NCBI GenBank assembly: GCA_965224465.1
Contig: OZ245049.1
Location: forward strand, 750,001 to 782,000
Source of the DNA: Flavobacteriaceae bacterium
GTDB lineage: Bacteria > Bacteroidota > Bacteroidia > Flavobacteriales > Flavobacteriaceae
Length of the DNA: 32,000 nt
Direction: 5' to 3'
The notes beneath the pieces were generated by a model that ran no database searches, had not been told where the DNA came from, and saw nothing but the letters and a program-made list of their open reading frames with translations. This document shows positions 1-23,022 of this stretch, piece by piece (positions within the stretch are counted from its first letter, which is position 1; each line of letters starts with the position of its first letter). The translations under genes were made by a program, and so were the position numbers.

Positions 1-1681
1 AGTACTGGTGGTTTTGCTTTGGAATCTCCGCTATCGGTTATTATATAGTCCTCTCCTCCAGACAATTCTACAATAGGTGCACCGCCTTTTCCTACTAATA
101 ATATATCTCCGTTGCTTGGGTCTACTAGGATTTCTGCTATTTGGAAGTTGACTTCGCTGGTATTTACTTGTCCATCACCTCCATTAAATAGATCCCCTGT
201 ACCCTTTACACTACTCCATGTAGGATCGTAGGTAGTTTTAACGACTCCTTCATACAATTCGTAATCCGTATTTATTTTAATTCCTTTAAACTCTACCGCT
301 ATTTTGGTATCTGCTAAATAAGGAACTACAATATATCCCGTTCCAGAAAAAGTACCATTTCCTCCTTGTTTCTGTTTTACTGTCACAGGGAAATCTCCTG
401 CCGTAAATGTTTCGTTCACGCCAATATTTGCCAATGGCTTAGTGTTGGTAATTTCAATTTCGGGGATAATACCACAGCTATAACTCACCGTTTCGTCCTT
501 GGTAGGCATGGTAAACTGGTTTACATTGCTGTAAGTAAACGCTTGGTTTAAATCCGTTATCTCATGGCAAGTACCACCCACTCTAAAATCGTAGGTAACT
601 CCTGCTTGTAAATTTGATACTTGGGCTTGGTTGTTATAAGAAAATATTTCGAACCATTCGGCATCGGCTACATCGGCACGTTTGTATTGTAAATGATACC
701 TGTTGTGATCTGGATGTGTTTTCCAACTTATTTTCACACGCCCTGTATTTAGCGGTTCTGCCAAAGTCATGGTGGGTGGATAACACTGATTTGTATAGGT
801 AAAATAAAATATTTCGCTATACCCATTGTTCTTAAAAACCGAGTTTTCGCTCAATCCTGTTGTAGATTTTGCGCGTACTCGCCAAGCATAGGTACGCCCT
901 GGCATTAATGGAGGCTTGCTTATGTTGTACGATATGGTAGTGGAATAGGTAGTCTCCGAATGATAAGGAGGCGCTGCTAAAAATCCTGCTTGAGGATCTA
1001 TCTGCGTATCCCAAAGCTCACGCAGTTCAAACTCATAACTTACACCACTCGCATTGGCATGCCGTGGTGTCCATTGAAAAGTAATGTTGGTGGGTTGTAT
1101 ATTAGTCAATTGATCCCCTCGGTTGGGAATATTTAAAAAAGGAGGATCGTTTAACAGTAAAAAGATATTAGAACAGCCTCCCATTTTAGGATTGGAGATG
1201 CGTTGTCCTGATAAAAAATCGTAGACTTCCCAACATATTTTGTAGCGTCCATCAGGTAGTGGTCTGTTGTATTGTTGTGGACTAATGCCTATTAAATTAT
1301 GTAACTGAAAATAGGCTGCTAAATCTATGTTTGTAAATTGTTGTGTACTTTTCCCATTGAGGTAAATAAAAGGTGCTCCTTGTACAAAATTTACAGATTG
1401 TATATTGAGTCCCTGTCCTTGTATTTTTAATTTTAAGCGTATTTGACGGTTGCTAATATTGGCATCGTTCATGGTCAAATACAGCCGTAATTTTACAGCA
1501 GACGTTGTTGCATAACTGTTTAGTTTTGTGTTATAAGGGGGGACTATATTTTGACTTACTTGTACTGGGTGGAGTTGGGCCTGTGTAAGTTGGCAGGTTA
1601 GCAATAGGCAGAATGCAGTTAGCAGTTTTGCGGTGACAGTAGGCAGTTTTGCAGTTGGCAGTAGGCAGTTGAGCATCTTTG
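1..1681. repeat. Copy 1 of a 1.68-kb direct repeat (partner 16311..17970)
   Basis: Line-by-line comparison at offset 16310. nt 91-1631 differ from the partner at 6 positions (166, 354, 455, 510, 791, 889). nt 1-90 differ at 9 positions. A 21-nt insertion (1632-1652) is present only in this copy. Similarity becomes degenerate beyond ~1681. Confidence 0.97.
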
Positions 1682-1901: not shown

Positions 1902-2342
1902 TTAGTACTGTATTTATTCTGGTTTTTAATCATGTAACCTAGGAGCTTTCCAACTTCTTCGGATTTATTATGTAATTCTTCTTTTATTTCTTTTGTTATG
2001 TAATTACAAAGCAAAGTCAAGCCAAACTTGCGTTTTATCTGCTTCTTTTATTTTTTTAGGGGTCAGATAGCATACGCTTATTTCATTTACAGAATAATTT
2101 AAACAAGTAGATTGGCTCAGTTCACTATTTTCCATATCGGCATCGGATAATTTTGTAATAAAATGTTTTGGATACAATCGTTTTCTATATCCCTCCGCTA
2201 AATTAGCACAAACAGACCGAGAACTACGACGTATTTGATCCGTTAACGAATACCGCTCTTCTTTTGGAAATGATTTTGTGTTTTCAAAAATATTCATTGC
2301 CAATTCAAATGCTATTTTATATGCCGTTAATTGTTTATACAT
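1898..2342 (-). pseudogene. Four-helix-bundle protein gene (TIGR02436 / PF05635 23S rRNA intervening-sequence protein, Avd-like family), apparently disrupted by an 87-nt in-frame insertion and a frameshift
   Basis: The ORF 2004..2342 translates MYKQLTAYKIAFELAMNIFENTKSFPKEERYSLTDQIRRSSRSVCANLAEGYRKRLYPKHFITKLSDADMENSE...TQVWLDFAL*. From memory, the family reads ...SDADMENSETQVWLDFAL.C.YI... without a break. Here 29 aa (LSQSTCLNYSVNEISVCYLTPKKIKEADK) separate ENSE from TQVW. After the TAA at 2004 the expected C-terminus continues in another frame (YITKEIKEELHNKSEEVGKLLGYMIKNQNKYSTK*) and ends at the TGA at 1898-1900. Confidence 0.6.
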
Positions 2343-2390
2343 TCTTATTTTCTATAACTTTATATGAACTAGATATTGCCTAATTATCCG

Positions 2391-2502
2391 TAACAATACT
2401 CCTTTCTACTGTAAACTACCTACTCTAAAGACAACAATGCTAAAACTGCCTACGCTATCCGCAACAACTTTCCTGCCTACCGCCTACTGCCTACTACCTA
2501 CT
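2391..2502. repeat. CTGCCTAC-type repeat module upstream of the four-helix-bundle pseudogene
   Basis: taacaatactcctttctactgtaaactacctactctaaagacaacaatgctaaaactgcctac (2391-2453) recurs at 2748-2810 with ~6 mismatches in 63 nt. It is followed by ctgcctaccgcctactgcctactacctact. A related module (tatagacatcagtgctaaaaccgcatactgcatac) sits at ~18110-18155. Confidence 0.85.
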
Positions 2503-2820: not shown

Positions 2821-4203
2821 TCATTCCTTCATCACCTTCACATCACAAATAACATAAGCACCATCACCAGCATCCACATAGTCTTTTATTTTAATAGCTC
2901 CTTTACGTCCGTCCTGTGTTTCAAACAGTATGATTCTAGGAACTACACTGTTATCGAATTGCAGTAATCCATTGTTTGTTTCTATTATATTTAATACTTT
3001 TAACAGGGTATCATCTATAATACTGTCAAATTCTGCTACAGACAAACTAGCTTCACATTCACAAATTTCTTGTGCGTTGATAAATTTGGTATGGGTGGCA
3101 TTTGGAATGGCGATAAACCCATTTGTTGCTACCTCATCAGGGCTTACAAATTTATTAAAACTAAAGTTCTTATTCAAACCAAAAAAGGCAATATCTATTG
3201 CTGACCCATTTTCTTCTGTTACCTGGTTGGCGGTAAAAATTGTTCTTAATTGTGTAGAGAAGAAAGCTCCTTTAGCATTGGTATTATGTGCATTATTGAT
3301 CCCTAGTTCTATATTAGAAAATGTACGTATGTTTGAATTTGGACGAATGGTTATGGATTTTGTTAGGGTATGCGTTTGTTTTCCATTCCCTGCTTTTAAT
3401 GCTATGGTATAAGTGCCAGGTGTATTAAAAGTTACGGACGGCGTTTTCTCTGTACTTATTTCAGGTGAACCGCTTGGAAGTGTCCATTGAAAAGAGGTCG
3501 CACTGATAGAACTATTGGTCATAGTAATGGTAACAGGAGCTTGATAATCATCGTCAGAAAAGGCAACTTCCCAATCAAAAACTGCTTCGATAGCTGGCGC
3601 CACCGCAATGCTTTTTTCTTCTGAAAACGATTCAAACCCATTGGATACTTTTAAGGAAATTAGATGTTCACCGGGGCTTTCGAAAAACACAGTTGAAGGA
3701 TGTTTTTTTGTTGACGTTGCTGGTGTTCCTCCTTCAAATACCCATGTATATATTAAGCCTTCTCCACCAGTAGTATTTATTATTTTTACTTCCATAGGAG
3801 CATAATTACTGTCAATTATTTCTGTAGAGAAACCAATTGAGATTCCTTCCACCACGGTAATTTCTTGCTCCATACTGTCCGTACTTCCATCTACATTTGA
3901 CACTTTTAAAGTTATGGTATAGCTACCTGCTTTGTTGTATACAATATCTCCTGGATTTTTATCAGAGCTACTAGAAGGTTCTGCTCCTTTAAACGTCCAT
4001 TCAAAAACATCTGCATCAACACTTTGATTGGTGATGGCTATTGTAACAGGAACAGATTTGTCTTCGTTAACAATTAAAATTTTAAAAGCAGCTGTAACAG
4101 GAATTGCCGTTTCTTTATAACAACTGAAACAAAACGATACTAACATTCCCAATAGAATGCTACTTTTTACGATGTTTATATTTAATTTTTTAGTTCCTAT
4201 CAT
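2821..4203 (-). CDS. PKD-domain lipoprotein (three PKD-like repeats plus an unknown ~170-aa C-terminal domain)
   Basis: 460-aa ORF with a lipoprotein-type signal (LLGMLVSFCFSC-YKE). Three repeats carry the PKD-like signature: FEWTFKGAEPSSSSDKNPGDIVYNKAGSYTITLKVSNVDGS, YTWVFEGGTPATSTKKHPSTVFFESPGEHLISLKVSN and FQWTLPSGSPEISTEKTPSVTFNTPGTYTIALKAGN. The ATG overlaps the upstream stop (TAATG at 4201-4205). Confidence 0.85.
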   Translation of the reverse strand: MIGTKKLNINIVKSSILLGMLVSFCFSCYKETAIPVTAAFKILIVNEDKSVPVTIAITNQSVDADVFEWTFKGAEPSSSSDKNPGDIVYNKAGSYTITLKVSNVDGSTDSMEQEITVVEGISIGFSTEIIDSNYAPMEVKIINTTGGEGLIYTWVFEGGTPATSTKKHPSTVFFESPGEHLISLKVSNGFESFSEEKSIAVAPAIEAVFDWEVAFSDDDYQAPVTITMTNSSISATSFQWTLPSGSPEISTEKTPSVTFNTPGTYTIALKAGNGKQTHTLTKSITIRPNSNIRTFSNIELGINNAHNTNAKGAFFSTQLRTIFTANQVTEENGSAIDIAFFGLNKNFSFNKFVSPDEVATNGFIAIPNATHTKFINAQEICECEASLSVAEFDSIIDDTLLKVLNIIETNNGLLQFDNSVVPRIILFETQDGRKGAIKIKDYVDAGDGAYVICDVKVMKE

Positions 4204-7200
4204 TACTTTATTATCATTCGTTTAATACGTGTTTCTTTGGCAGTTTCTAGCACCACAAAGTAGGTTCCTGTTGCTAAATTTAAGCTCATTGATATTTTAT
4301 ATTCTTCTGCTGACGCAAGGTTTGGTTGGGCAAAAATAAAGCTTCCTTGGATGGAAAACACCCGAACGGCAATTTGACTTGATTCTGCTAAATTTATATA
4401 CAATTCAAACTGACCATTATTTGGATTCGGACTTAGGGTAAATTCTTCAATAAAAGGATTGTTGGTATCTCCTGGACTTGGCAAGCCACTATGTTCTTCA
4501 ACAACAATATTTTTATACTGTTCTTCGTAGCATGCTCCTTGGGTTGAAATTAATCCTAGTTCGTAAGTCGCAACTTTTGGAAAACGCAGCGTAATGGACA
4601 GGTCACTTTTTTCTATAATGGCGACTTCCTTTGGGATGATCCATTTAGAAGATGCCCCTTTTGGACTACTAACATTAAATACAATTACATCTTGATTTAC
4701 ATAAGCTTGAGAGGAGAGTAAAAACTCCGAATCAATAATTGTATCATTATATAAAAAAGTAATACTATCGCTAGCTGTACATCCAAGTGCAGAAATTACC
4801 GTGACTTGGTACGTACCTGCTTTTGAGATTGTAATTGAAGGCGTTGTTGCCGAAAAACCGTTATCAGAGGTCCAACTATAGGTGGCATTTTTATCAGATA
4901 TACTTCCATCTACTTCATGTGTTTGGTCTTTACACAATGTTCTGTCGGCACCTAAATCAATGGTGATTTTGGTTGGATGCACGAGTATTATTTCTTTAAA
5001 AGCCTTACACCCATTGCCATCTATTAAAGAGAAGGTGTACGTACCTTGACTAAGGCCCTTAATATCCGTAACTGTTTCTCCAGTATTCCATGCAATGGTA
5101 TAGGGAGGAACTCCGCCCGACAAAGCCAATTCGATACTGCCATCATTCCCTTGAAAACAAGTTGGATGCTTTTCTTTTAAAACCGTTATTTGTAATCCTC
5201 CAGGTTGCGCTATCCCAATATTCCCTGTTACTTGACAGCCACGAGCATCGGTAATAAAAACCAGATAATTTCCTGCGATTAGATTGTTTGCCGTTGCTGT
5301 ATCTTGCCCATTAGACCATTCAATTTTATAGGGAGGAATACCTCCAGTAATTGTTACTGTTGCTGTGGCATTATCTCCTGTATCACAAGAAATTTCAGTT
5401 TTTGACAATGCAACTTCTAGGAGTTCGGGTTCCTGAAAGTAATATATCAGATCCGTTGGGTTTATTAATTGTAAACTTTTATACACTCCAATTACGACTC
5501 CACGACTATCTGCTACATTTAATGCATATTTACCATGAGATAATCCCATAGCTGTATTTGTATTTTGATTTAAGTCCTCAAAATCACCATTTTTATTTTC
5601 TTTTTTCCAATAGTACATATAAGGTTGTCCCTCAGTAAATGGCACCCCTCCCGTAACAGTAACGTGCAACGCTCCGTCAGAAAAAGGATTGTTAAAACTA
5701 TTGTCTCCGTGGCAAGAAATAGGCTTGTGTACACTTAATATAGCTTCTATTGGATCGTATAACATAAATACATTATCCGCTATAGTACAACCATCGCCTG
5801 TGTTTGCAAGAGAGGAATTGGCATCTTCTATGGTTAAATAATACGCACCTTTTGGTAGCTTATTCAAACGTATTTGAAATATCCCATTTACGATACCTGT
5901 AGTTGTTTGTGCATTCAAAATTCCACCGTTGGCATCTTGCCAATAATACGTATAACTTCCATTTTTAAAATCGGTTCCCCCCGTAATTTGGGCTACGATC
6001 CATCCGTCAGAGGCTCCACCTATAGATGGAGTTTCAAACGCCGTATATTTTATAGATATGGACGCTGTTGGCTGGTTTATTTGAATACTTCCTGTAGTAT
6101 GACAGCCACTGCTATCACTAACAGCAACCTCATACACGCCCTGATTTAGATTGGAGATTTGTTCTGTAACACCCCCATTAGACCATAAAACAGTATAGGG
6201 AGGTTTTCCTCCAGAAACAATTATTTTCGCCCAAGCATCGCTGCCGTTGAAGCAATACACATCTTGTTTTTCTATGCTCAGTTCAAGTAGGGAGGGCTCT
6301 TTAAAGAGATAGAGAACATCCGTAGCATTTACAAGTAGGTTGTTCTGATAAACACCAATTATAATTCCATTGGCATCCTCAATATTAACCGCATAATTCC
6401 CTGCATCCAAGTTGTTGGCTATATTGGTAGTTTGTGTAGTTAATACCGTCCAAACACCAGGGTTAATTTCTTTTTTCCATGTGTAATAATACGCCAACCC
6501 ATTGTTATCTGTAGGTTGTAAATGTACACCTCCTTCTGCAATAACTTCCAATACACCATCGGCAAAAGGATCTTCATAAGTATTGGCACTATTACATGAT
6601 ATTGGTTGTTGTAATTCTATTCTTGCCATTAGTGGTGCAGGTTCAAAAATCTCATAGTCACTACTAACAATGGTACAGTTTGTCTTATTAATTGCTACGG
6701 AGTAATTCTTATCTTCAATAGTTAAGTCATACACACCTTTACCCAGATTATTGAGAGTTATCACATAACTTGTTGCATGGACAGTTTCGGTTACTTTTGC
6801 ATTCAAATTAGCACCATTGGTATCTTTCCAATGATACTTGTACTTCCCAGAATCCATGGAGGTCCCTCCTGTTATTGTCGCTTCAATCCAGCCATTGGTT
6901 GCCCCTGTATATGTGGGTGCAAAAAAAGCAGTATAGTTAATTACTAAAGGATTTTCTGGTTCCTTAATTGTGATGTTTGCTTGAGCTTGACAACCTTTTA
7001 TATCGGTAACATCAATTGTATAAGTCCCCGCTACTAAGGTGTCGATATCTTCTGTACTAGCACCATTAGTCCATAAAATTGTATAATCCCCAGTCCCTCC
7101 TGTAATGGTGGCGTTAATACTCCCATCATTTCCTGCATTACAAAACACATCTACTTTTGTGAATGTTATTTGTAGCAGTTCCGGTTGTGTAAGTGTATAT

Positions 7201-11408: not shown

Positions 11409-11636
11409 TTAACAATTTAATTTATCCGATAATTCTACAATAGGTGCACCGCCTTTTCCTACTAATAATATATCTCCGTTGCTTGGGTCTACTAGGATTT
11501 CTGCTATTTGGAAGTTTACCTGTTTCACTGCATACGTTCCTTGCTGTTTTTGAACAGCGTGCTGCTGTGCTACTGCTATTTGAAAAAAGCAGGAACATAG
11601 GAATAGTAGGATTGTATGTAGGTTTTTAAGTGGCAA
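11409..11636 (-). CDS. 75-aa orphan ORF: signal-peptide-like N-terminus fused to a 30-aa segment copied from the toxin paralogs. Possibly a gene remnant.
   Basis: Translation ...KNLHTILLFLCSCFFQIAVAQQ...VNFQIAEILVDPSNGDILLVGKGGAPIVELS-DKLNC*. The underlying nt 11428-11516 match 61-149 (88/89) and 16371-16459 (86/89). There is no ATG: the ORF opens with TTG (11636..11634) immediately after an in-frame stop. Confidence 0.4.
   Translation of the reverse strand: MPLKNLHTILLFLCSCFFQIAVAQQHAVQKQQGTYAVKQVNFQIAEILVDPSNGDILLVGKGGAPIVELSDKLNC
11428..11516. repeat. Third copy of the 89-nt junction segment of the toxin paralogs
   Basis: gataattctacaataggtgcaccgccttttcctactaataatatatctccgttgcttgggtctactaggatttctgctatttggaagtt. 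It carries the copy-2 base at the position equivalent to 63 and the copy-1 bases at 75, 81 and 84, so it is a mosaic. Confidence 0.95.
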
Positions 11637-12361: not shown

Positions 12362-15300
12362 TTATATTTTTTTTATTCCTGTAATAATATCCCCGTTTGC
12401 TCCATCGTGCACTTTATACCATTGTATCTCTCCATTAAAACTTAAAATTTCTCCTCCTTTTAATTCATTTTTACTACCATCTATTTTAGATTTTTTCGGA
12501 TTAGAGGCACGAACACTATAACTACCTTTTCCCTTTGCAGCCTTTTGGTTAGGTGTTAAACGAGTGCCACTGCTAAGTTTGTTTTCTATAATTATGATAT
12601 CATCTATATCTCCATAAGCATCATATTTTACAAAAACTTGGTCTGCTACAAAATAATCTACTTTTTTGCCATTAGCCAATGTTACCTCTCCAAAACTTAA
12701 TTGTACTTGTGAGAACATATCGTATTCATCTAGATTTTTGTTAAAGTCTGCACTAAATTTTTGTTTTAATTCCAAGTACTTATCAGAGAGGCGGTTTTTA
12801 AATTTTTCTAGGCAGACAAATTTTTCAAAATCATTTCCCTTTTTTGTTACCACTTTAAAGAAATTGGCTTTAGCCCATTTTCTCCATATTCCTGTACCAT
12901 CTTCACCTAATTCAAAAGCATAGGCAGCATCGTCTTTAAGTAGTTTCCAGGCTTCCACATCTTCTGCCCCAACTATGAGATCTTTAAGCTCATCTCCATT
13001 ACTTTTAGAAGCAAAATCCATGTTTAATTTACTCCAATAGGATTCTCCAATTTCATCAATTTTTTTTATTATGTCAATATTCTCAACTTCATCTAAATTA
13101 GATACCCATGTTTTCAAATTTGGAAAATCATCCATTTTATTCAACAATGCAGTAATAGCCTCACTGTGTTTCACCGTTGTCCCAAGTATTCTCTTAGCCT
13201 CAGCAATATCCCCTACTAAATCATCAACGTTACCTAGTCCAGCTTCAATCTCAAGATGTGTAACCCAAATTTTTGCTTCTTTTATTTTATTAGGGTTCGC
13301 TGTGTTAATCGTTTTAATGTCTCCTTCTGCATCTTTTAATTTGTCTAAGAATAATTTAGCCTGATTTTTACTTGGCAGCGTTTTATTTAGAGTTTTAGTT
13401 TTAGAAAAAATCTTTTTTAAATTAGCTACATTAGATATTTCACCAATGGCAATAGTGGCAGTTAAAACGTTTAGGGCGTCTAAAAAAGCTTTGCCTTGTG
13501 GGCTTAAATTTTCTGTACCTATGGCTGTGGTAGTCAAACTAACTCCTGAGCCAAGCATATCCGCAATAATAAAAGTTTTTCGCATTAAACTTGGAGCCTT
13601 TGTAAGAGCTCCATAACCAGAAGCTAAACTTGCAACATCTACAGTTGCTTGTACCCCATCTACAACTACTTGCGTATTTCCAACATCGCTAGCATAAAAA
13701 GCAACTATGGCAGGGCTAATTACAGGTACATCATCGTTATATTCACTTAACATGCTTAACCCTGATTTATTGGTGAAATAAATTGGAGAATAAGGATGTA
13801 ATGCCAATGGTATAGCTGTAGAGACAATATCATTGCCAACAAATTTATCGGTATAAAGTGAAATTGTGGAAATTGTCTCATCTTCCTCCGATAGCCATTT
13901 TACTCTTGTGTCATACGAGTATAGATTTTTGCCATTCAGAAAATTCCATAACACAGGTAAATCTCCCAAAGTCAAGTTCCAAAAAGACTTGTAATAAAAT
14001 TTGATGTTTCTCTCAATTAACTCATCTTCCTTTAAACTTCCTAGTTCCGTTAAAAAGAATGTTGACTTATTAACATTTAAATCTGCGAGTACATTAATTA
14101 AATTCTTATAATTATCTTCATGAAAATAAGTGTGGTCATTATCTGTTTTATATACTAATTTACGAAGTAGGTTATAGTCTGCAGTTGCTACTTTAGAAAC
14201 ACTGTTTATTCCATCTAATAACCCGTCAACTTCAGTTTTTTTCGTGAATTTTATTAACCTAATTAACTGTTTTTCTTTTTCATTGTCCAGAGTCCACTTG
14301 TCTAGCATTAAGCTAAGTATTATCAATTTTTTATCAATTGATATATCTTCAATCTCATTGTTAGACAAAAATGCAATACATTTATGTAAATCAGATATTT
14401 TACTTTCTCCATCTATTGAACTCAATAAATGTGCACAATCTTTGGTTTCATTTTTTACACCATTTACAAATTGAACATACTTTTGAATTAATGAATCCTT
14501 TTTTAATGTTTTTAATGCCTCGTAAGCTATCTCAGATGGGACACTACTTAAATAGTTAGGAATAACCTTATCCATGGCATCAGGATATGCATTGTTAAGT
14601 ACTGCAATTTTTGAAGCTATAAGATACAGGGAATTCCAATCAATAATTTCCCCTAATATTTCCTTAATTAATTTCCCTTCCAAATTATATAGTTCAGGAA
14701 ACGGAATATTCTTCGCAAAAGTATAGTCATTTTTTTCTAGAACCTCTCCTGTATAGAACTTACTAAACCTATTATAATTTGATAAAATATTTGTCTCCTT
14801 TTGAGAACCCCAAGTTAAATTATCAACTTTATTAAGAGAAAGTCTTCTTGATTTATCTGTTAAAATAAGTATGATTACTTTACCGAAACTTCGTTTATTA
14901 TCTTCAGAAAGCACAAACTCCTCACCTGTGTCAGATTCAAAACCAAAATAATCAAAAGTAAAATCAGTAATAGTTATATCTGTACTTAATTCATTATTTA
15001 CTCTTTTCGCTTTATACTTATTACTATCCAATGTAAAACCTATAAGTGCACCTGTAGGGTATTTTATAAATTCATTTATTTTATCTAAACTAGTAACAAA
15101 CCTGATATTTTCTATTTTTGAAGGAAGTGTGATATAACTTCCGTTCAAAGTCATAAAAGTATATGTTCCGTTCGAATTTTTAAATTTACTAGGAATTCCA
15201 GAAATAGTGGTGCTCTCCCCTTCACTATCCCCATCAAAAACCCCAATCCTCAATTTCGGATTGTGTATGGCTTTCCAATGTACATAAGGTAAATGCTCTC

Positions 15301-18241
15301 CATTATTATAATCTAGTAACCAATTGGTACTTCCTGTAGCATATTTATAACTATGCGTAGAGAATGGATGTTTTAGTTGGAAGGCACCGTGGGCGAGTTC
15401 GTGTGCTACGGTTATCCCCCCAGCCCCAGAAGGGGGAGAATTTGCGGTAAAAATATAACCGAATTGTCTGCCTAGTGGCATGAGTCCTTTTTCTCCTGCG
15501 GAGCTTGGCTGTTTGTCTGTTAAGATTAAATAATAAGCTTCAGGGTTAAAGTTACCATGCTCTTTTAATGCCTTATTTATACTACGCTGTTGCTCCGTGT
15601 ATTGCGCTGCAAAGCCACTTTCTCCACTTTTTATAGTGCCGTCTGGTGTTAAACTGTTTAGGGTCGCTGTAAAATCGTTAATTACAGAAATATTTAGGCT
15701 AACTGCTGCTTGTTGGTAAATAGCTTTTAGTTTTTTTGTAATGGCACTTGTATTCGCATTTGAAGTATTTACCAATACTACGGCCACTTCCTTTATGGCA
15801 ATTTGGTATTGCATAAAAGCCCCTGCTATTTGGTATTTATCGCCTTGTTTTACTAAGGCTTGGGTTTCTATATCGGCATCGCTTAGCGTTCCTTTTAATT
15901 TTAAGGTGTAAGAAGTACTAGTACTATCTACTTTTTTCAGTCCTACACCATCTTTGGTTTTAAAAATAATGTCTTGAGGTTTTATACTATCGTTGGTAAT
16001 TTTGAAATTGGCAACAATAAAAGCTACCTTGCCCTTGGCTACCGCTTTGTAAGGCATGTAATAAGCTGCTCCTAACTTTTTGTACAAGTCCTTGGTTTGT
16101 GATTGGCTTGAGTTGTAGGCGTCGAATCCAGTGGGCAGTGTTGCAGTAGGCAGTTGGGTGAACGTTACGGTGACACCTTGTGCGGTGATGTTGGTGGCTT
16201 CTCCTTTGCTGTTTACGCCTGTGGTATTTTCCACAGTGGTAGTACCGCCTTCGGCTTGTGGACCTAATTCGGTTACATTTCCTTGTTCGTCTACATGGTA
16301 TTTTTTTGGTAGTACTGGCGGTTTTGCTTTGGGGTCTCCGCTATCGGTTATTATATAGTCTTCGCCTCCAGATAATTCTACAATGGGTGCTCCTCCTTTT
16401 CCTACTAATAATATATCTCCGTTGCTTGGGTCTACTAGGATTTCTGCTATTTGGAAGTTGACTTCACTGGTATTTACTTGTCCATCACCTCCATTAAATA
16501 GATCCCCTGTACCCTTTACACTACTCCATGTAGGATCGTAGGTAGTTTTAACGACTCCTTCATACAATTCGTAATCCGTATTTATTTTAATTCCTTTAAA
16601 CTCTACCGCTATTTTGGTATCTGCTAAATAAGGAACTACAATATATCCCGTTCCAGAAAAAGTTCCATTTCCTCCTTGTTTCTGTTTTACTGTCACAGGG
16701 AAATCTCCTGCCGTAAATGTTTCGTTCACGCCAATATTTGCCAATGGCTTAGTGTTGGTAATTTTAATTTCGGGGATAATACCACAGCTATAACTCACCG
16801 TTTCGTCCTTGGTAGGCATTGTAAACTGGTTTACATTGCTGTAAGTAAACGCTTGGTTTAAATCCGTTATCTCATGGCAAGTACCACCCACTCTAAAATC
16901 GTAGGTAACTCCTGCTTGTAAATTTGATACTTGGGCTTGGTTGTTATAAGAAAATATTTCGAACCATTCGGCATCGGCTACATCGGCACGTTTGTATTGT
17001 AAATGATACCTGTTGTGATCTGGATGTGTTTTCCAACTTATTTTCACACGCCCTGTATTTAGCGGTTCTGCCAAAGTCATGGTGGGTGGATAACACTGAT
17101 CTGTATAGGTAAAATAAAATATTTCGCTATACCCATTGTTCTTAAAAACCGAGTTTTCGCTCAATCCTGTTGTAGATTTTGCGCGTACCCGCCAAGCATA
17201 GGTACGCCCTGGCATTAATGGAGGCTTGCTTATGTTGTACGATATGGTAGTGGAATAGGTAGTCTCCGAATGATAAGGAGGCGCTGCTAAAAATCCTGCT
17301 TGAGGATCTATCTGCGTATCCCAAAGCTCACGCAGTTCAAACTCATAACTTACACCACTCGCATTGGCATGCCGTGGTGTCCATTGAAAAGTAATGTTGG
17401 TGGGTTGTATATTAGTCAATTGATCCCCTCGGTTGGGAATATTTAAAAAAGGAGGATCGTTTAACAGTAAAAAGATATTAGAACAGCCTCCCATTTTAGG
17501 ATTGGAGATGCGTTGTCCTGATAAAAAATCGTAGACTTCCCAACATATTTTGTAGCGTCCATCAGGTAGTGGTCTGTTGTATTGTTGTGGACTAATGCCT
17601 ATTAAATTATGTAACTGAAAATAGGCTGCTAAATCTATGTTTGTAAATTGTTGTGTACTTTTCCCATTGAGGTAAATAAAAGGTGCTCCTTGTACAAAAT
17701 TTACAGATTGTATATTGAGTCCCTGTCCTTGTATTTTTAATTTTAAGCGTATTTGACGGTTGCTAATATTGGCATCGTTCATGGTCAAATACAGCCGTAA
17801 TTTTACAGCAGACGTTGTTGCATAACTGTTTAGTTTTGTGTTATAAGGGGGGACTATATTTTGACTTACTTGTACTGGGTGGAGTTGGGCCTGTGTAAGT
17901 TGGCAGGTTAGCAATAGGCAGAATGCAGTTAGCAGTTTTGCAGTTGGCAGTAAGCAGTTGAGCATCTTTGTGAAAATAGTAGGCAATTGCTTGTTGTTGC
18001 GGATATTTGTAGTATGCGGTATGCAGTTGAGCATCTTTGTGGTAAGATTTTTTAAATTAAACTTTGATTTTATTTCACAACAGTGAGTACTGCAAACTGC
18101 ATCCAGAAAACTGCGTACTTTATAGACATCAGTGCTAAAACCGCATACTGCATACTTTAACCTCAACAACATTCCTGCAATCTGCTTACTGCTTACCATG
18201 CGTAACATTTTATTTATTAAATTTGAGAACATTCTTTTCAT
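12362..18241 (-). CDS. Giant modular polymorphic-toxin-like protein: FN3-rich N-terminal region, HExxH metallopeptidase motif, long helical region, hydrophobic pre-toxin helices, PD-(D/E)xK-like C-terminal domain
   Basis: 1959-aa ORF. FN3-like segments include TNITFQWTPRHANASGVSYEFELRELW...RTYAWRVRAKS and GRVKISWKTHPDHNRYHLQYKRADVADAEWFEI...GVTYDFRVGG. The peptidase motif is ITVAHELAHGAFQLKHPF. The C-terminus reads GNDFEKFV...VDYFVAD...IIIIENKLSSGTRLTPNQ. There is no T9SS CTD. The start is ambiguous. The ATG at 18241 overlaps the upstream stop (TAATG), but the first signal-peptide-like segment begins at Met93 (17965: MLNCLLPTAKLLTAFCLLLTCQLTQAQ). Confidence 0.9.
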   Translation of the reverse strand: MKRMFSNLINKMLRMVSSKQIAGMLLRLKYAVCGFSTDVYKVRSFLDAVCSTHCCEIKSKFNLKNLTTKMLNCIPHTTNIRNNKQLPTIFTKMLNCLLPTAKLLTAFCLLLTCQLTQAQLHPVQVSQNIVPPYNTKLNSYATTSAVKLRLYLTMNDANISNRQIRLKLKIQGQGLNIQSVNFVQGAPFIYLNGKSTQQFTNIDLAAYFQLHNLIGISPQQYNRPLPDGRYKICWEVYDFLSGQRISNPKMGGCSNIFLLLNDPPFLNIPNRGDQLTNIQPTNITFQWTPRHANASGVSYEFELRELWDTQIDPQAGFLAAPPYHSETTYSTTISYNISKPPLMPGRTYAWRVRAKSTTGLSENSVFKNNGYSEIFYFTYTDQCYPPTMTLAEPLNTGRVKISWKTHPDHNRYHLQYKRADVADAEWFEIFSYNNQAQVSNLQAGVTYDFRVGGTCHEITDLNQAFTYSNVNQFTMPTKDETVSYSCGIIPEIKITNTKPLANIGVNETFTAGDFPVTVKQKQGGNGTFSGTGYIVVPYLADTKIAVEFKGIKINTDYELYEGVVKTTYDPTWSSVKGTGDLFNGGDGQVNTSEVNFQIAEILVDPSNGDILLVGKGGAPIVELSGGEDYIITDSGDPKAKPPVLPKKYHVDEQGNVTELGPQAEGGTTTVENTTGVNSKGEATNITAQGVTVTFTQLPTATLPTGFDAYNSSQSQTKDLYKKLGAAYYMPYKAVAKGKVAFIVANFKITNDSIKPQDIIFKTKDGVGLKKVDSTSTSYTLKLKGTLSDADIETQALVKQGDKYQIAGAFMQYQIAIKEVAVVLVNTSNANTSAITKKLKAIYQQAAVSLNISVINDFTATLNSLTPDGTIKSGESGFAAQYTEQQRSINKALKEHGNFNPEAYYLILTDKQPSSAGEKGLMPLGRQFGYIFTANSPPSGAGGITVAHELAHGAFQLKHPFSTHSYKYATGSTNWLLDYNNGEHLPYVHWKAIHNPKLRIGVFDGDSEGESTTISGIPSKFKNSNGTYTFMTLNGSYITLPSKIENIRFVTSLDKINEFIKYPTGALIGFTLDSNKYKAKRVNNELSTDITITDFTFDYFGFESDTGEEFVLSEDNKRSFGKVIILILTDKSRRLSLNKVDNLTWGSQKETNILSNYNRFSKFYTGEVLEKNDYTFAKNIPFPELYNLEGKLIKEILGEIIDWNSLYLIASKIAVLNNAYPDAMDKVIPNYLSSVPSEIAYEALKTLKKDSLIQKYVQFVNGVKNETKDCAHLLSSIDGESKISDLHKCIAFLSNNEIEDISIDKKLIILSLMLDKWTLDNEKEKQLIRLIKFTKKTEVDGLLDGINSVSKVATADYNLLRKLVYKTDNDHTYFHEDNYKNLINVLADLNVNKSTFFLTELGSLKEDELIERNIKFYYKSFWNLTLGDLPVLWNFLNGKNLYSYDTRVKWLSEEDETISTISLYTDKFVGNDIVSTAIPLALHPYSPIYFTNKSGLSMLSEYNDDVPVISPAIVAFYASDVGNTQVVVDGVQATVDVASLASGYGALTKAPSLMRKTFIIADMLGSGVSLTTTAIGTENLSPQGKAFLDALNVLTATIAIGEISNVANLKKIFSKTKTLNKTLPSKNQAKLFLDKLKDAEGDIKTINTANPNKIKEAKIWVTHLEIEAGLGNVDDLVGDIAEAKRILGTTVKHSEAITALLNKMDDFPNLKTWVSNLDEVENIDIIKKIDEIGESYWSKLNMDFASKSNGDELKDLIVGAEDVEAWKLLKDDAAYAFELGEDGTGIWRKWAKANFFKVVTKKGNDFEKFVCLEKFKNRLSDKYLELKQKFSADFNKNLDEYDMFSQVQLSFGEVTLANGKKVDYFVADQVFVKYDAYGDIDDIIIIENKLSSGTRLTPNQKAAKGKGSYSVRASNPKKSKIDGSKNELKGGEILSFNGEIQWYKVHDGANGDIITGIKKI
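12365..12830 (-). other. C-terminal ~155-aa putative restriction-endonuclease-fold (PD-(D/E)xK) toxin domain
   Basis: The catalytic-type residues occur in the expected order: E in GNDFEKFV, D in VDYFVAD, E-x-K in IIIIENK (codons at 12578-12586), then TPNQ. This matches the generic E...D...ExK...Q layout of PD-(D/E)xK nucleases. I could not assign a subfamily. Confidence 0.5.
15389..15403 (-). other. HExxH zinc-metallopeptidase motif (HELAH) inside the toxin
   Basis: The reverse complement of gtgggcgagttcgtg is cac gaa ctc gcc cac. The context is GITVAHELAHGAFQLKHPF, with a third His 7 residues after the second. Confidence 0.7.
16311..17970. repeat. Copy 2 of the 1.68-kb direct repeat (partner 1..1681)
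   Basis: See the partner feature. It encodes aa ~93-643 of the 1959-aa protein. Confidence 0.97.
17925..18200. repeat. Short GCAGTWG/CTGCTTAC-type repeat field with an 11-bp perfect inverted repeat, at the 5' end of toxin paralog 2
   Basis: gcagtaagcag (17947-17957) is the exact reverse complement of ctgcttactgc (18182-18192). The unit gcagttgagcatctttg occurs twice, 69 nt apart, giving Met70 and Met93 (KMLNCIP.../KMLNCLL...). The region shares modules with 1820-1897, 2391-2453 and 2748-2810. Confidence 0.9.
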
Positions 18242-21200
18242 TAGTTTCTAAACCTATTAGGGTTCTTAAATTTATAGGTACTATTACTTCCTTCAATCCC
18301 TCCAGGTAACGTGTAGCTTAATTTTGTTTCATAAAAACCATATCTCATAAAGAGGTAATCATCATCCAAGAAATTAAGTAGTGAACTTCCTTTAGGTATC
18401 AATCCGTCCACATAATCATTCAATATTTGAGATTGCATATCTAGCCAATCCGCTTTATAAGCCTCCCCAAGGTTGTAGCGAAAAGGAAAGGTAGTTCTCA
18501 GTGTTTTATCATTTACTTCGTATTCCAAATTAGTTAAATAACTAGATAAAATAGGCATTGCATACTTAGGAGGTGTGCCTAATAATTGAACCTTTCTGTT
18601 TTCAAAAGTATACGTTCCTCCCATTGGATATTGGGCATATAATGGTGGATTTATATCAGCTGTAAAATAGCTATCCTCAAGCGTTGCTTCAATACTAACT
18701 AAAGGTATATGATCTGTAAAATTAGATCCTAAAAGTTCCATAATATCAAAAGGTTCATGATCATCCAGTCTATTGGTCAAATAAATAACATCAGAATAAA
18801 TAATTCCCCAATTATAATCGTTGGTATTGATGGAGTTAATTTTACGTTTGAATGTTTTGTATTTAGACGAACCAAATTCATACGCCAACCGTACTATCTC
18901 TCCATTTTTAGATACATTTTCTGCCTGTTTATTTTCTATGATTGCAGTATTCTCACCAGAATCATCACCTATATCGGCATTATGAGTTGTTGTATCCCCT
19001 CCTCGTTCTACGGCAGCTCCTTTAAGTCTACTAGCAATTTCCATGGTATAGTGTGTTTCTTGGGATATGTTCGGTATTTTATAGCTTAGTTTATTATCCG
19101 AAGTACTGTAATTAAAATCTATATCTTTTGAATTTCTATTGTTAGAACTATACTTCACAAAGCTCTCCCAGGCGGCATCATCAAATAAATAATCTTGCCC
19201 ACGTTTTAATTGAATGTACCCTTGAGCATACTCATTTTCTAAAAAATATTTCTGGTCTACTACTGGATATGCGTATTTGATATTGTGTAAGGGAATATAA
19301 TTGGGAGCTCCACCGGTAGTAAAGGTACGCTCTTCCATTTCTTTTGCTGGTTTACCATCTACCATTATGGGTTGAAAAATTCCATTAATTTTCTCTTTAA
19401 AACTCACCTCTACACGCACTGTTAATTCTTTATTTGGAGGTAAGATGTCTGAAGACACAAAATTAGCTCGGTCTTTAAAGGTTGACCATTCTATGACACC
19501 AGGGATTTCCTTCCCCTTGTATAAAACAGTAAATGTATCCACATCAATGCGGTATGTTTTATCACCATCATCTTCTGGGATAATTAATGGCACGCCCACT
19601 TTCATACTAAAAGTTACTTGCGGAACGGCAAAAATGTCTAAGTCTTTTATACCATTATCAGGTGACACATCTGTAATAATTTTTAAGCCACCCAAAGGTA
19701 TCCCATTATCAAATTCACATTCTTCTCCAATCGTAAGTTTAAATCTAAACTTACCTTTTACCAATCCTCCCAACACATTAAAATTACCCCCCACATAGCC
19801 ACGCATCCAAACTGGATTTGGCGCTTTGGCTTGCAATAATACAGCAGCTCCACCTTTAATGATTGGTATTTTCTTCTTCACAAAAAACAATTTGATTTGA
19901 ATCCCTAATTCTCCTTGTAAATAGGCGTATGCTTGTCCATTTGCATACCAGCCATTAATCCCTACTTGCTTCCCAGTATTGGAACAAGAAGCTTCTCCAT
20001 AATCTCGTAACATGATATCAAAACCAGTACCTGCCTGAAAACGAGCATATAACATCAAAAAACGTAAATCTCCTGTATCAATAGCCAGATCAGCTCCAAA
20101 AGCGAACCCTCCCCCGGACTTTAAGGCATTTTCGTCGCGCATATAATCCAATACATCTGCATCTACTCCTAGAATTTCTGCAACAATTGGAGGCGGAGGC
20201 GGAGATCCTGGAAGCTTGGAACCTACCATTAAGTAGCCCCCTGTTTCCAAAAAAACAGTCCCAACACCTATTTTTATTCCCAACCTATCTTCTGGAGTTC
20301 CTATATAAATATACCATTCTTCTTTTGCAAAATGTAATACTGCCCATCCAGCTCTTCCACCAGGGCCTCTACCCTGAATAAACCCTCCTGGAGTATTAAT
20401 AGTAACATCCAATTCTCCGTGCAATACATCATTTTGAAAATCATAGGTTATTCCCATTTTCGCACAAATATCCATTCCTTTGCTAGGGTCTACTTGTGGA
20501 AAATTATTAGCTGCCTTGTCCATTAAATTTCCCCCAGCCCAAGATTCATCATCTTTTGGCGTACTTAGAAATTTTTCGGCTATATCAACATTTTCTTTTA
20601 CTTTATTTAGAAGGTCTGAAATTTTTTCTATCCCAGGAATTTTAACTCCTAAAAAGGTTGCTTGACCATAAAACCCCATGTTGTTAATTCCGCCATGGCG
20701 ATTAAACAAAATTTCAAAACCAGCACTTCCTTTAATAACTTCGTCCTTCACCATATTAAACATCACCATTGCTTTAAAGCCAAGTCCGAGGTCATGATCA
20801 GGGGTATAACCAATTCCTGTAGGTGAAAATGACGAAGAAAAACCTTTCCGTTTCATCCGATATGATGCGCCACCAGCAAATCCAGTCAAATTCATATAAC
20901 CGGTCCCAATAGAAAAACCATCCACCATAGCTTCAAATTGCCAATACCTAAAATCTGTTTTTCCAAACACTCCTTTAGCCGCAGCTTTTATACCAATACT
21001 TTTAAAATTGGCAGTTAATGATGCTGCAAACCCATCTCCATATTCTGGGTCATCTCGCATTAATTTTAACCATCCTTCTATAGAAAACCCTCCTAAATCC
21101 GCCTTTATAGTAATTTCATCCAATCGCAGTCCATCAAACTTCCATTTTTGACGATAATCTTCTTCTTCAAAACTCCCTATGACTCCTAAGCTGGTTGCAG

Positions 21201-23022
21201 CAGCAAAACCATTATTATCTCCCATTAAATTAATGGCTAAATTAAAATACAGATTGGCATTGACCTCAGTGGCAGTAATACCTATATTAGAAATAGACAC
21301 AGGAAATCCCGCTAGTGAAACCTTGTCTCGATAGCCCATATAATCCACAGCAAAAACAGGTGATTCTGTTTGCAATACTAAATTTTGAAATACAATTCCT
21401 TTAAACTCAACCAATTTTTTTTCTGGACTTCCATTGGGGTTAGTATTCCCAGTTTCAACTTTTTTACCTTCGTCCTCTAAGCTTCCTACTTGACTTGCAC
21501 TAATAGATAAACGTCCATGCAATGTAGCTTTGGGCCTAAACTCCCCATCTCTTACCGCTAGTTCAATAGTACTATTGGGTAACAATTGCCCTTTTGCATT
21601 CCAAAGACTAAAATCTATAATAGAATCGTTGCTTACATTTAATACATACGCATCGGTAGAAATAAGACCTTTGTATTTTAAGCCTATACGATCAGGGCTA
21701 CTTTTTGTGCTTTTTTCTTTTTTAGAAACAGGTAATAAAATGCGTCCTTCAATGGATGCGCCAATAAAATTATTGGCTGCCAACGAAACTTGAATATGGT
21801 CTAAGGAATACGCCCATGCTTTATTATTATTAGTTCTTCCTTGGTCTAAAGTAAAAATATTATCTGCAAAAAAAGTACCTGAAACACCGTAATTATCAAT
21901 AATAAGATGATGTGCACCAAAGGAAACACGTTGATTCTCCCCACGTTTTAAGGTGTTAGACGTCATGAATTCTGTAGGCATTTTAACCTCAACAGTATTT
22001 ACGTACACTCCTCTCCAAGAGCGTTCGTTAGGAATTAATAATCCGTTTTCGTGATAATAAGCAGGAAATGCAACTTCAGGGTCGTTCCGTAAATCACTAA
22101 AATCTAATACCGCATTATTAACAAAAAACTGAAAATTCCCTTTGTAATCTTTATTATTTCGCTTTTTAGCCATCACAAAAGGCTGTAATTCAATACCAAC
22201 TAGTAAATCATTCCAGTCAGAAGCAACAACTTTAAACCCTCCTTTTACACGGTATGGCACTTGAATAACTTGTGTACCCTTCTCTGTTTCTATCGTTTTA
22301 TTTATCTTGGTTTTAGAGAGATTAACAGTTCCTTTTTTTGGACCTTCAGACTCAATAGGCAACAATAATTCTCTCGAAAACTCCACCTCTCCTTCAATCC
22401 CAAGTTCCTTAACTCCATCACAATTAATAGTCACAAAAGTCCTGTTCTCTACATTTCCAGTTTTATAATCAAATCCACCTTTAAGAGTTAACATCCATTT
22501 CCCTCCGTTAAAAGGAAGGTGTAAATCACCTAGCAACACCAAATTAGCATCGCCTATAATCCCTCCTTGATGTGATAGTTTTACATTATTGGCTCCAAAA
22601 AAAAGTTCTATGGGATACCCATTACTATCTGTTTGTGGTAAGCGTACCCGAGCAAAAACTGTTAATTCTGTATAATCTTTATTAAATGTAGCTTCTGTGA
22701 TACCAATAGCATATTCTATATTTTCTCTTGTATGTTTAACCCCTACAGGAAGTTCTTGAATATCTTCGCTTGAAAAACTATCTACCCACGATTCATGCTC
22801 CTCAATAGCTTTAAATGAACCCGCAGCCAGATCTCTATTTTCTTTTACCACATTTGAAACTGGATATAATTTTTCCATAGCTTCCCAAGAAAATTCATGT
22901 TGAATATCCTTAAAACTGGTTGAAACCACATAGGAACTGTCCTTAGCAATTGTTATTTCTTTAGAGAAACCCAAAAAAGTGATCCCCAAAAGAATCAGAG
23001 TAACCCAAGTTCTTATTTTCAT
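18241..23022 (-). CDS. Giant secreted or envelope protein of unknown function, encoded immediately upstream of the toxin
   Basis: 1593-aa ORF with an N-terminal signal or anchor (MKIRTWVTLILLGITFLGFSKE). The body is beta-rich and Gly/aromatic-rich, with a poly-Pro hinge (PGSPPPPPIVAEILG, ~20190-20215) and Ig-like segments near the C-terminus. There is no T9SS CTD, no lipobox and no family motif that I recognise. Confidence 0.85.
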   Translation of the reverse strand: MKIRTWVTLILLGITFLGFSKEITIAKDSSYVVSTSFKDIQHEFSWEAMEKLYPVSNVVKENRDLAAGSFKAIEEHESWVDSFSSEDIQELPVGVKHTRENIEYAIGITEATFNKDYTELTVFARVRLPQTDSNGYPIELFFGANNVKLSHQGGIIGDANLVLLGDLHLPFNGGKWMLTLKGGFDYKTGNVENRTFVTINCDGVKELGIEGEVEFSRELLLPIESEGPKKGTVNLSKTKINKTIETEKGTQVIQVPYRVKGGFKVVASDWNDLLVGIELQPFVMAKKRNNKDYKGNFQFFVNNAVLDFSDLRNDPEVAFPAYYHENGLLIPNERSWRGVYVNTVEVKMPTEFMTSNTLKRGENQRVSFGAHHLIIDNYGVSGTFFADNIFTLDQGRTNNNKAWAYSLDHIQVSLAANNFIGASIEGRILLPVSKKEKSTKSSPDRIGLKYKGLISTDAYVLNVSNDSIIDFSLWNAKGQLLPNSTIELAVRDGEFRPKATLHGRLSISASQVGSLEDEGKKVETGNTNPNGSPEKKLVEFKGIVFQNLVLQTESPVFAVDYMGYRDKVSLAGFPVSISNIGITATEVNANLYFNLAINLMGDNNGFAAATSLGVIGSFEEEDYRQKWKFDGLRLDEITIKADLGGFSIEGWLKLMRDDPEYGDGFAASLTANFKSIGIKAAAKGVFGKTDFRYWQFEAMVDGFSIGTGYMNLTGFAGGASYRMKRKGFSSSFSPTGIGYTPDHDLGLGFKAMVMFNMVKDEVIKGSAGFEILFNRHGGINNMGFYGQATFLGVKIPGIEKISDLLNKVKENVDIAEKFLSTPKDDESWAGGNLMDKAANNFPQVDPSKGMDICAKMGITYDFQNDVLHGELDVTINTPGGFIQGRGPGGRAGWAVLHFAKEEWYIYIGTPEDRLGIKIGVGTVFLETGGYLMVGSKLPGSPPPPPIVAEILGVDADVLDYMRDENALKSGGGFAFGADLAIDTGDLRFLMLYARFQAGTGFDIMLRDYGEASCSNTGKQVGINGWYANGQAYAYLQGELGIQIKLFFVKKKIPIIKGGAAVLLQAKAPNPVWMRGYVGGNFNVLGGLVKGKFRFKLTIGEECEFDNGIPLGGLKIITDVSPDNGIKDLDIFAVPQVTFSMKVGVPLIIPEDDGDKTYRIDVDTFTVLYKGKEIPGVIEWSTFKDRANFVSSDILPPNKELTVRVEVSFKEKINGIFQPIMVDGKPAKEMEERTFTTGGAPNYIPLHNIKYAYPVVDQKYFLENEYAQGYIQLKRGQDYLFDDAAWESFVKYSSNNRNSKDIDFNYSTSDNKLSYKIPNISQETHYTMEIASRLKGAAVERGGDTTTHNADIGDDSGENTAIIENKQAENVSKNGEIVRLAYEFGSSKYKTFKRKINSINTNDYNWGIIYSDVIYLTNRLDDHEPFDIMELLGSNFTDHIPLVSIEATLEDSYFTADINPPLYAQYPMGGTYTFENRKVQLLGTPPKYAMPILSSYLTNLEYEVNDKTLRTTFPFRYNLGEAYKADWLDMQSQILNDYVDGLIPKGSSLLNFLDDDYLFMRYGFYETKLSYTLPGGIEGSNSTYKFKNPNRFRN

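Follow-up and report, generated by a model that had tools for sequence, protein, structure and literature searches.

A candidate TANFOR-class toxin locus with two toxins and four accessory genes in a Flavobacteriaceae genome, and an inferred delivery mechanism

TANFOR-domain proteins were defined by Jana, Salomon and Bosis in 2020 as a class of Bacteroidetes polymorphic toxins (PMC7073777). One of their C-terminal domains, BaCT, is a PD-(D/E)xK DNase that is neutralised by the protein encoded downstream. Several domains are enriched beside TANFOR genes, among them SprB (P 2e-87), Fn3 (1e-56), PKD (8e-47) and Por_Secre_tail (2e-28), with values ranging to 2e-7. A type IX secretion system (T9SS) is present in more than 95% of the genomes with TANFOR genes, and export of the toxins by T9SS was speculated in the same study (PMC7073777). 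Later papers name TANFOR merely among known trafficking domains, and no experimental follow-up on the export of TANFOR toxins after 2020 was found in the searchable literature. Here we describe a locus of this kind in a stretch of 32,000 nt from a Flavobacteriaceae bacterium (assembly GCA_965224465.1, contig OZ245049.1, positions 750,001 to 782,000), hereafter the window.

The minus strand of the window encodes two toxins, T1 and T2, and four large proteins, A, E, F and G, whose families accompany the N-terminal part of such toxins (the TANFOR/FN3 head) in many other genomes. On balance we favour reading this island as a TANFOR-class toxin locus of a marine Flavobacteriaceae genome, with two toxins, the four usual accessory genes and an inferred delivery mechanism. 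An earlier, sequence-only reading of the same DNA had suggested an undescribed system. That part of it does not hold: the system is a known toxin class, and the class itself, the enrichment of SprB, Fn3, PKD and T9SS-tail proteins in its neighbourhood and the idea of T9SS delivery were all published in 2020 (PMC7073777). The published enrichment is at the level of domains only. The four partners as a set, the A family (which has no annotation), the gene-order variants, the fusions of the head with A and the boundary marked by an HExxH motif are not in that study, and we did not find the set, the family, the fusions and the boundary described elsewhere. In the order of transcription the island consists of A, T1, C, a short open reading frame (ORF), E, F, G, H and the head of T2. 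Its main features are the following.

18241-23022, minus strand: A, 1593 aa; predicted to be secreted and almost all beta strand, with no annotated domain.
12362..17965, minus strand: T1 from its probable start, ~1867 aa; very probably a complete TANFOR-class polymorphic toxin, with the start set by family alignment.
11683-12357, minus strand: C, putative T1 immunity protein, 224 aa, leaderless.
9277-11397, minus strand: E, 706 aa; predicted secreted protein with an FN3-like array.
4203-9272, minus strand: F, 1689 aa; SprB repeats and a T9SS type-A C-terminal sorting domain at ~4206-4433.
2821-4203, minus strand: G, 460-aa lipoprotein with three PKD domains.
1-1676, minus strand: T2, head of a second toxin, very probably of the TANFOR class; the frame is open off the left edge of the window.

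The assignment of the toxins to the TANFOR class comes from their relatives. The curated cut-off of the TANFOR model TIGR02542 is 67 bits, and the N-terminal domain of T1 scores below it, whereas 22 of 26 aligned homologs match the model (best E 1.7e-10). Thus the membership rests on homology and not on the curated score. At least 261 homologs of the head were found, some of which are named TANFOR by NCBI. The head is 60-72% identical to TANFOR proteins listed in PMC7073777, namely those of Gelidibacter algens (L006) and Tenacibaculum sp. M341 (L012), and 48% identical to the BaCT-carrying TANFOR toxin WP_116753619.1 (L066; Supplemental Data 3 of the same paper). From these similarities T1 and T2 are, with high confidence, predicted to be TANFOR-class toxins. 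The locus has in common with those of the published toxins an N-terminal Sec leader, a TANFOR domain, FN3 domains and a polymorphic C-terminus followed by an immunity gene, and also the adjoining proteins with SprB repeats and a T9SS tail, Fn3 and PKD domains and the occurrence of toxins both fused to the head and separate from it. It differs in that the TANFOR domain in the window is under the TIGR02542 cut-off and in that the toxin domain is neither BaCT nor any other named family.

A, E, F and G are specific families co-conserved with the head across genera. A scan with one genome per species gave 493 loci related to the head, of which the best 79 were taken with 10-kb flanks. All of these were searched with the window proteins, and the 71 whose upstream flank is 8 kb or longer were considered informative. 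At least two of the four families lie beside the head, on its own strand, in 62 of the 71, which cover three gene orders and more than ten genera; the module thus passes the test of co-conservation that the sequence-only reading had set for itself. The order E-F-G-head, all on one strand, was observed in 35 of the 71 loci, from Tenacibaculum, Tamlana, Gelidibacter, Aquimarina, Flagellimonas/Allomuricauda, Spongiimicrobium and Galbibacter, and A is upstream of E in 30 of these 35. The order E-F-head is found in Flavobacterium species (24/71), where G lies about 8 kb further on and is followed by A if the flank reaches that far. Two loci have F-G-head, one has A-head, and one falls in none of these classes.

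Individual genomes illustrate the variants. The complete order A-E-F-G-head is present in Aquimarina spongiae. Tenacibaculum maritimum has A, small ORFs and then E-F-G, and in Flavobacterium psychrophilum a toxin precedes A at some distance. In Pedobacter endophyticus, which belongs to Sphingobacteriia, the order is A, head and, further on, toxin domain, C, a remnant, E and F, as in the window. The window combines two arrangements that are found elsewhere, in which a toxin follows either A or G; the slot behind G, occupied here by T2, is the usual one in marine genera. The junction between A and E is variable: it is near empty in Aquimarina, whereas in T. maritimum small ORFs occupy it together with a duplicated piece of the C-terminus of A, and in the window it harbours T1, C and a recombination scar. 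The closest relatives among the matches listed are from Tamlana, Tenacibaculum, Gelidibacter and an uncultured Flavobacteriaceae bin.

Protein A has no match in Pfam, NCBIfam or PDB sequences. It has 542 close homologs across Flavobacteriaceae, with 50-76% identity over the full length, and the whole family comprises 2159 cluster representatives at E <=1e-3 (1354 at E <=1e-30), with a uniform length of about 1450-1650 aa. No other component of the locus is as well conserved as A, which exceeds both F and the head in this respect. The AlphaFold2 model of residues 1-1200 (predicted local distance difference test score, pLDDT, 70.9) is almost entirely beta, with about 60 long antiparallel strands, and the best Foldseek hits, reaching E 2e-6, are to barrels of the outer membrane, namely LptD, the FimD usher, SlpA, MtrB and porins. 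This is a hint at a beta-meander, possibly a membrane barrel, and not a fold assignment. Two A homologs are labelled 'Cell surface protein SprA' in UniRef; the label found no support, as no SprA-family match was found and SprA is outside the top 50 fold matches. In Pedobacter, Chryseobacterium and Bergeyella, TANFOR genes have directly upstream of them genes for leader-bearing domainless proteins of 1508-1566 aa (supplement of PMC7073777), which resemble A in size and position and may be homologs of it.

The strongest hint that the head and A may work together physically comes from fusion proteins. Protein P0342 (2263 aa; L087:10001-16792) consists of a leader, a full TANFOR/FN3 head (32% identity, E 2e-64), a linker of 360 residues and a complete A, which begins at A residue 66 and has 34% identity. 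P0360 has the same layout with a truncated N-terminus. The locus of P0342 also encodes a separate headless toxin (2894-7987, 1697 aa) with its own leader and the HExxH motif GHELGHGAFNLNHPY, and E comes after the fusion gene. The head is therefore a separable module, which occurs in fusion with a toxin, on its own or in fusion with A. The lengths of the head genes in the 79 loci fall into three classes, namely the head only (~730-810 aa), the head with the HExxH region (~1000-1250 aa) and a fused toxin (1300-3644 aa), which hints at modular truncation, with one point past the head and another past the HExxH region. A PorP/SprF-OmpA gene is located upstream of the P0342 gene on the same strand, and this is the only related locus with such a gene nearby.

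The three other accessory proteins are recognised more easily. E has no Pfam match at threshold, no usable match among PDB sequences and a weak match to an FN3-linker family in NCBIfam; most loci, those of Pedobacter and of P0342 among them, have a syntenic E with 39-75% identity. F contains five SprB repeats (Pfam SprB, E 3e-52) and ends with a type-A T9SS tail at aa 1614-1689 (Por_Secre_tail E 4.5e-13, TIGR04183 E 1.1e-13), with the type-B tail CHU_C below threshold. G has Pfam PKD matches (E 2.7e-23) and a leader ending in ...FCFSC, and its orthologs are predicted lipoproteins in Supplemental Data 1 of PMC7073777. These matches, together with that of FN3 in T1, confirm the SprB-repeat T9SS protein, the PKD protein and the FN3-bearing toxin recognised earlier from the sequence alone. 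A T9SS sorting domain was found by Pfam and NCBIfam in F alone, and none was found in the toxins, A, E or G. In Flavobacterium, type-A substrates of T9SS are carried by PorV and type-B substrates by SprF-like carriers (PMC12635249). As in the operon of the SprB adhesin, a SprB-repeat protein with a T9SS tail is encoded here among other large envelope proteins. Unlike in that operon, the tail of F is of type A and the window contains no SprF-type carrier; with a type-A tail, no dedicated carrier of this type is expected.

From its N-terminus, T1 consists of a leader, the TANFOR-like domain and a pair of FN3-type domains; then come a beta-rich stretch and a region with HELAHGAFQLKH, both conserved, and lastly the variable part. 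Its parts are located as follows.

12362-18241, minus strand: longest ORF of toxin 1 (B), 1959 aa.
17885..17965, minus strand: predicted signal peptide (MLNCLLPTAKLLTAFCLLLTCQLTQA), read off the sequence and aligned to the leaders of homologs.
17504..17866, minus strand: TANFOR-like N-terminal domain, from a weak TIGR02542 match and homologs.
16820..17422, minus strand: two FN3-type domains, from Pfam matches.
15212..16240, minus strand: conserved middle region, with the HExxH motif (HELAHGAFQLKH) at 15368-15403; conservation stops at ~15212.
12365..15211, minus strand: polymorphic C-terminal part, ~950 aa, of which the last ~220 aa (12365-13027) are a putative nuclease toxin domain.

The start of T1 was placed by comparison with the family. 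The 26 aligned homologs have a leader of about 20 residues and then AQ..PVQV..IPPYS. The same pattern appears in the window after Met93 of the long ORF, as MLNCLLPTAKLLTAFCLLLTCQLTQA|QLHPVQ, which aligns with GYA|QLYPVQ of a published TANFOR toxin. Since the N-terminus of the family aligns to Met93, T1 most likely starts at 17965 and not at 18241, that is, about 275 nt past the end of A. The TAATG at 18239-18243, formerly taken as an overlapping junction of A and the toxin, is indeed present in the sequence; it involves the longest ORF only, and the likely start at 17965 leaves a gap of about 275 nt instead. T1 and T2 both carry a predicted Sec-type leader, as judged by eye and by alignment. 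Thus the opinion that the toxins lack a secretion tag had to be revised; what they do not have is the C-terminal tail of T9SS substrates.

In the longest ORF, Pfam fn3 matches at aa 274-364 (E 2.3e-8) and the FN3-like Pur_ac_phosph_N at aa 396-474. The pattern AHELGHGxFxLxHPF is kept in at least 80% of 41 homologous loci projected onto T1. The coverage by homologs drops from about 99% to less than 50% just past aa 1010 of the ORF, some 55 residues after the HExxH motif. The position of a zinc-peptidase-like motif just ahead of the variable part suggests self-cleavage that would free the cargo.

A similar C-terminus was observed in only two of the 79 loci. Sequence searches of Pfam, NCBIfam and PDB yielded no usable match for either the middle or the C-terminal part of the toxin. 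The last ~220 aa belong to a family of mostly short proteins (28 matches) with the pattern G-K-x-F-E ... Y-F-V-A-D-Q-V-F-V-K ... I-E-N-K-L-S ... Q ... V-R-S. The conserved positions in 21 sequences are E177, D238 (almost invariant), E257, K259 and Q270, and this fits the E/D/ExK/Q layout of PD-(D/E)xK nucleases. The AlphaFold2 model of the domain (pLDDT 81) has helices, then three strands, then a helix. Pattern and model together are suggestive of a PD-(D/E)xK nuclease fold. The domain could not be identified with BaCT: in a profile comparison by hhalign with BaCT of WP_116753619.1 the probability was 0.1-0.8% with E >0.07, the sensitivity being limited by the use of a single BaCT sequence. 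A homolog of the toxin domain also forms the C-terminal part of the metagenome protein P0265 (368 aa), behind a TNT domain (NAD-glycohydrolase toxin, PF14021) at residues 8-104; P0265 may combine two toxins or be a piece of some larger protein.

Gene C begins 4 nt past the stop codon of T1, and its product has no Pfam, NCBIfam or PDB sequence match. The same 4-nt spacing lies between homologs of the toxin domain and the homologs of C behind them in two other places: Pedobacter endophyticus, where the C homolog has 40% identity (E 4e-42), and a metagenome contig, where it has 35% (E 8e-12). These C homologs are 214-215 aa long. The pair formed by the toxin domain and its partner thus recurs in unrelated contexts, as predicted for a toxin and its immunity protein. 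This agrees with the toxin-immunity pair proposed previously, and C is a putative immunity protein for T1. The arrangement resembles that of BaCT and its immunity protein BaCTic in several respects: a C-terminal domain of a TANFOR toxin with an invariant ExK and a PD-(D/E)xK-like pattern is followed by a leaderless immunity protein. It differs in that there is no detectable similarity (hhalign below 1%) and in the size of C, 224 aa versus 320-360 aa in BaCTic.

The heads of T1 and T2 have 1631 nt in common at 99.1% identity, with no difference over the first ~1050 nt. Upstream of the heads, leader included, identity is only 84-86%, and the T2 leader has a 7-codon insertion relative to T1, one more 21-nt unit of the repeat. 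A recent gene conversion that affected the coding head explains this better than would a recent duplication of the entire segment. A third copy of toxin-head DNA, 92 nt long, lies at 11428-11519 and is 95.7% identical to 16371-16462 in T1 and 97.8% identical to 61-152 in T2. Judged from these identities, it is a recombination scar and represents no gene family, and the ORF around it is spurious. The sequence-only reading had listed this ORF as an orphan handle gene, which it is not: its content is the 92-nt piece just described, with 96-98% identity to either head.

11409-11636, minus strand: spurious ORF, enclosing the 92-nt scar at 11428..11519.

Remnants were observed in the equivalent slot of two other loci, a 71-aa copy of the A C-terminus with 66% identity in T. 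maritimum (L086:15417-15629), and a 51-aa copy of the C-terminus of the toxin domain past the immunity gene in Pedobacter endophyticus (L082:7484-7630). Short repeats similar to GTAGGCAGT and CTGCCTACTGCC fill the DNA between genes, both in the surroundings of H and ahead of the two toxins (1632-1872, 2385-2500, 2741-2809 and 17885-18191). The CTGCCTACTGCC-like repeat DNA also encodes the toxin signal peptides (MLNCLLPTAKLL...).

The locus may be compared with other known antagonism systems. It shares with contact-dependent growth inhibition (CDI; CdiB/CdiA/CdiI) a very large toxin with a conserved N-terminal part, a sharp boundary and a variable C-terminal toxin, an immunity gene directly downstream, orphan recombination fragments and an adjoining large beta-rich partner protein. 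Unlike CDI, the island has no two-partner secretion (TPS, Haemagg_act) domain, no haemagglutinin/FHA repeats, no VENN motif and no Omp85/POTRA partner according to Pfam and NCBIfam, and there are four partners instead of one, one of them with a T9SS tail. Effectors of type VI secretion systems (T6SS) may be specialised or cargo effectors (PAAR/VgrG, MIX, FIX), and the TANFOR head resembles them as a delivery module that is either fused to a toxin or encoded separately beside it; the same comparison was drawn by Jana et al. (PMC7073777). The difference is that the window contains no T6SS genes or domains, and that its products are predicted Sec-exported envelope proteins and not a cytoplasmic contractile machine. 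RHS repeats, PAAR, VgrG, Hcp and the MafB N-terminal domain have no matches in the island proteins in Pfam and NCBIfam either, and so the earlier impression that the arrangement was not recognisable as CDI, Rhs, T6SS or MafB is borne out by the absence of the respective domains.

The following mechanism may be proposed. All components would cross the inner membrane by the Sec pathway. F would be exported by T9SS and either kept on the cell surface or released from it, G would be a surface or outer-membrane lipoprotein, and A would be a large beta-rich protein of the outer membrane or surface, on which the TANFOR/FN3 head docks. A, together with E, F and G, would then export and display the toxin. 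The HExxH domain would cut the polypeptide and free the variable C-terminal cargo, and the terminal nuclease-like domain would kill neighbours without C. Finally, the near-identical heads and the leftover fragments would enable swaps of cassettes by homologous recombination. That the accessory proteins are needed for toxin delivery we hold to be rather probable. That A specifically is the conduit is possible, and here we are more hesitant. A more specific version is that A, E, F, G and the head form an uncharacterised envelope machine of Bacteroidota in which A, whose family of about 1600 aa lacks known relatives, is a dedicated outer-membrane conduit or anchor for the head, as in autotransporter or two-partner systems, with coupling to T9SS via F; this we regard as tentative and rather doubtful. 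To our knowledge, T6SS-iii is the only established delivery route for antibacterial toxins in Bacteroidota. If such a machine exists, it would be a new toxin-delivery pathway, possibly a contact-dependent one.

Several observations weigh against this interpretation. Firstly, the steps of export, display, cleavage and killing are all predictions from gene order, domain content and fusions. Secondly, the co-conservation was established on the best 79 of the 493 loci, and eight of the 71 informative ones have solitary heads with no accessory genes nearby; at least three of these solitary heads are in genomes with a full cluster elsewhere. Thirdly, the N-terminal domain of T1 itself scores 18 bits with TIGR02542 (E 0.0018), below the cut-off. 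The location of A is likewise doubtful, as the predicted template modelling score (pTM) of its model is 0.43 and the TM-scores of the barrel matches are only about 0.1. The HExxH region has no match to a peptidase family in Pfam. Finally, the model of the C-terminal domain has no match in PDB by Foldseek, and all its matches in the Foldseek viral library, which include DUF1064 and several PD-(D/E)xK nucleases, have E >0.001.

Among the other explanations, one is that the locus mainly encodes a surface structure, an adhesin or a filament that serves in attachment, gliding or the formation of biofilm, with the TANFOR/FN3 protein as a structural component and the toxins as optional C-terminal add-ons. 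It agrees with the fact that 14 of the 79 head genes encode only ~730-810 aa and no toxin part, and that the head can join A in place of a toxin. F, G and E are built of repeats of the adhesin type (SprB, PKD, FN3), and A is highly conserved, unlike typical parts of arms-race loci. However, the short heads usually precede large genes and small immunity-like genes, and toxins are encoded just downstream in short-head cases (PMC7073777). The polymorphic break, the pairing with immunity genes and the recombination scars are hallmarks of antagonism loci. We consider such a mainly adhesive role unlikely.

Another explanation, following Jana et al., is direct export by T9SS, where the head serves as a non-canonical T9SS signal, the toxin leaves through the SprA translocon, and A, E, F and G are merely neighbouring surface proteins related to T9SS. 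The frequency of T9SS in TANFOR genomes and the enrichment of T9SS-substrate domains nearby (PMC7073777) argue for it, as do the Sec leaders of the toxins, which two-step substrates also have, and the eight of 71 heads situated away from accessory genes. On the other hand, the toxins have no C-terminal T9SS sorting domain, and neither have A, E and G, which are linked to the head as tightly as F. The head-A fusions indicate a direct tie to A rather than to a general translocon. This route is quite improbable in our opinion. It is hardly credible that the locus is a chance neighbourhood or a recombination hotspot where genes of secreted proteins and toxin cassettes gather without joint function, for although the strand is uninformative in a window that is co-directional throughout and the A/E junction is a slot with different inserts in different genomes, in 62 of 71 loci the head is found with these four families, in more than ten genera plus one Pedobacter genome, in three orders and with differing surroundings, and fusion proteins exist.

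Gene H and an RNA element are located between G and T2. The earlier list of genes omitted both.

2004-2342, minus strand: H, 112 aa; four-helix-bundle protein of the 23S rRNA intervening sequence (IVS) protein family.

H matches PF05635 (23S_rRNA_IVP) with E 1.7e-22 and also TIGR02436; the match to bAvd is weak (E 0.0037) and below the cut-off. Homologs of H with 55-67% identity occupy the same position, between G and the head, in eight related loci from several genera (L003, L005, L007, L008, L062, L068, L074 and L078), about 450-570 bp upstream of the head. H may be outside the toxin system. The Avd-like match prompted a search for a diversity-generating retroelement, a possibility that was rejected, as no reverse transcriptase family matched in the seven island proteins scanned; the repeats found in the window were the toxin heads and the short intergenic motifs. 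A Flavo-1 RNA (RF01705) was identified at 2507-2581 on the plus strand, with 59.8 bits against a threshold of 42, in the intergenic region between G and H and antisense to the genes. It was not found in seven related loci that carry gene H, and therefore it is not part of the module.

All relevant ORFs of at least 100 aa in the 32-kb window, those of housekeeping genes included, are on the minus strand, and the GC skew is negative in nearly all 1-kb bins of 1-32000. This fits a long stretch of a single replication orientation. As the housekeeping flank has the same orientation as the island, co-directionality is no evidence for an operon here. The run of about 23 kb of same-strand genes with tight junctions was confirmed in the sequence: F and G overlap at the TAATG at 4201-4205, base 4203 being common to both, and the gaps are 4 nt between E and F, 4 nt between T1 and C, and 11 nt between the short ORF and E. 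A scan for promoters and terminators, which does not model Bacteroidota promoters, gave sites no commoner than in shuffled sequence. The island extends beyond the left edge of the window. On the other side it is flanked by genes for a TonB-dependent receptor, sucD, lpxD, efp, lpxA, lpxC-fabZ and lpxD; the lipid-A/efp/sucD neighbourhood noted before is thus present, with the TonB-dependent receptor gene between it and the island. Direct repeats, 126 nt and 49 nt in length with 81-88% identity, lie on either side of the receptor gene (23234-23400 and 26594-26762). No transposase, integrase or phage domains were found by domain search of the large ORFs, as expected from the sequence-only reading, which had seen no such gene.

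The comparison narrows the question of TANFOR toxin export to four candidate partners, among them the A family, which is large, conserved and without annotation. The fusions of head and A hint directly that the two associate physically, and the export question is open to single-gene deletions. The same cluster is present in the fish pathogens Tenacibaculum maritimum and Flavobacterium psychrophilum, and an A homolog is present in F. columnare. F. johnsoniae CI04 is another carrier of the cluster. Thus the system may matter for competition in aquaculture microbiomes.

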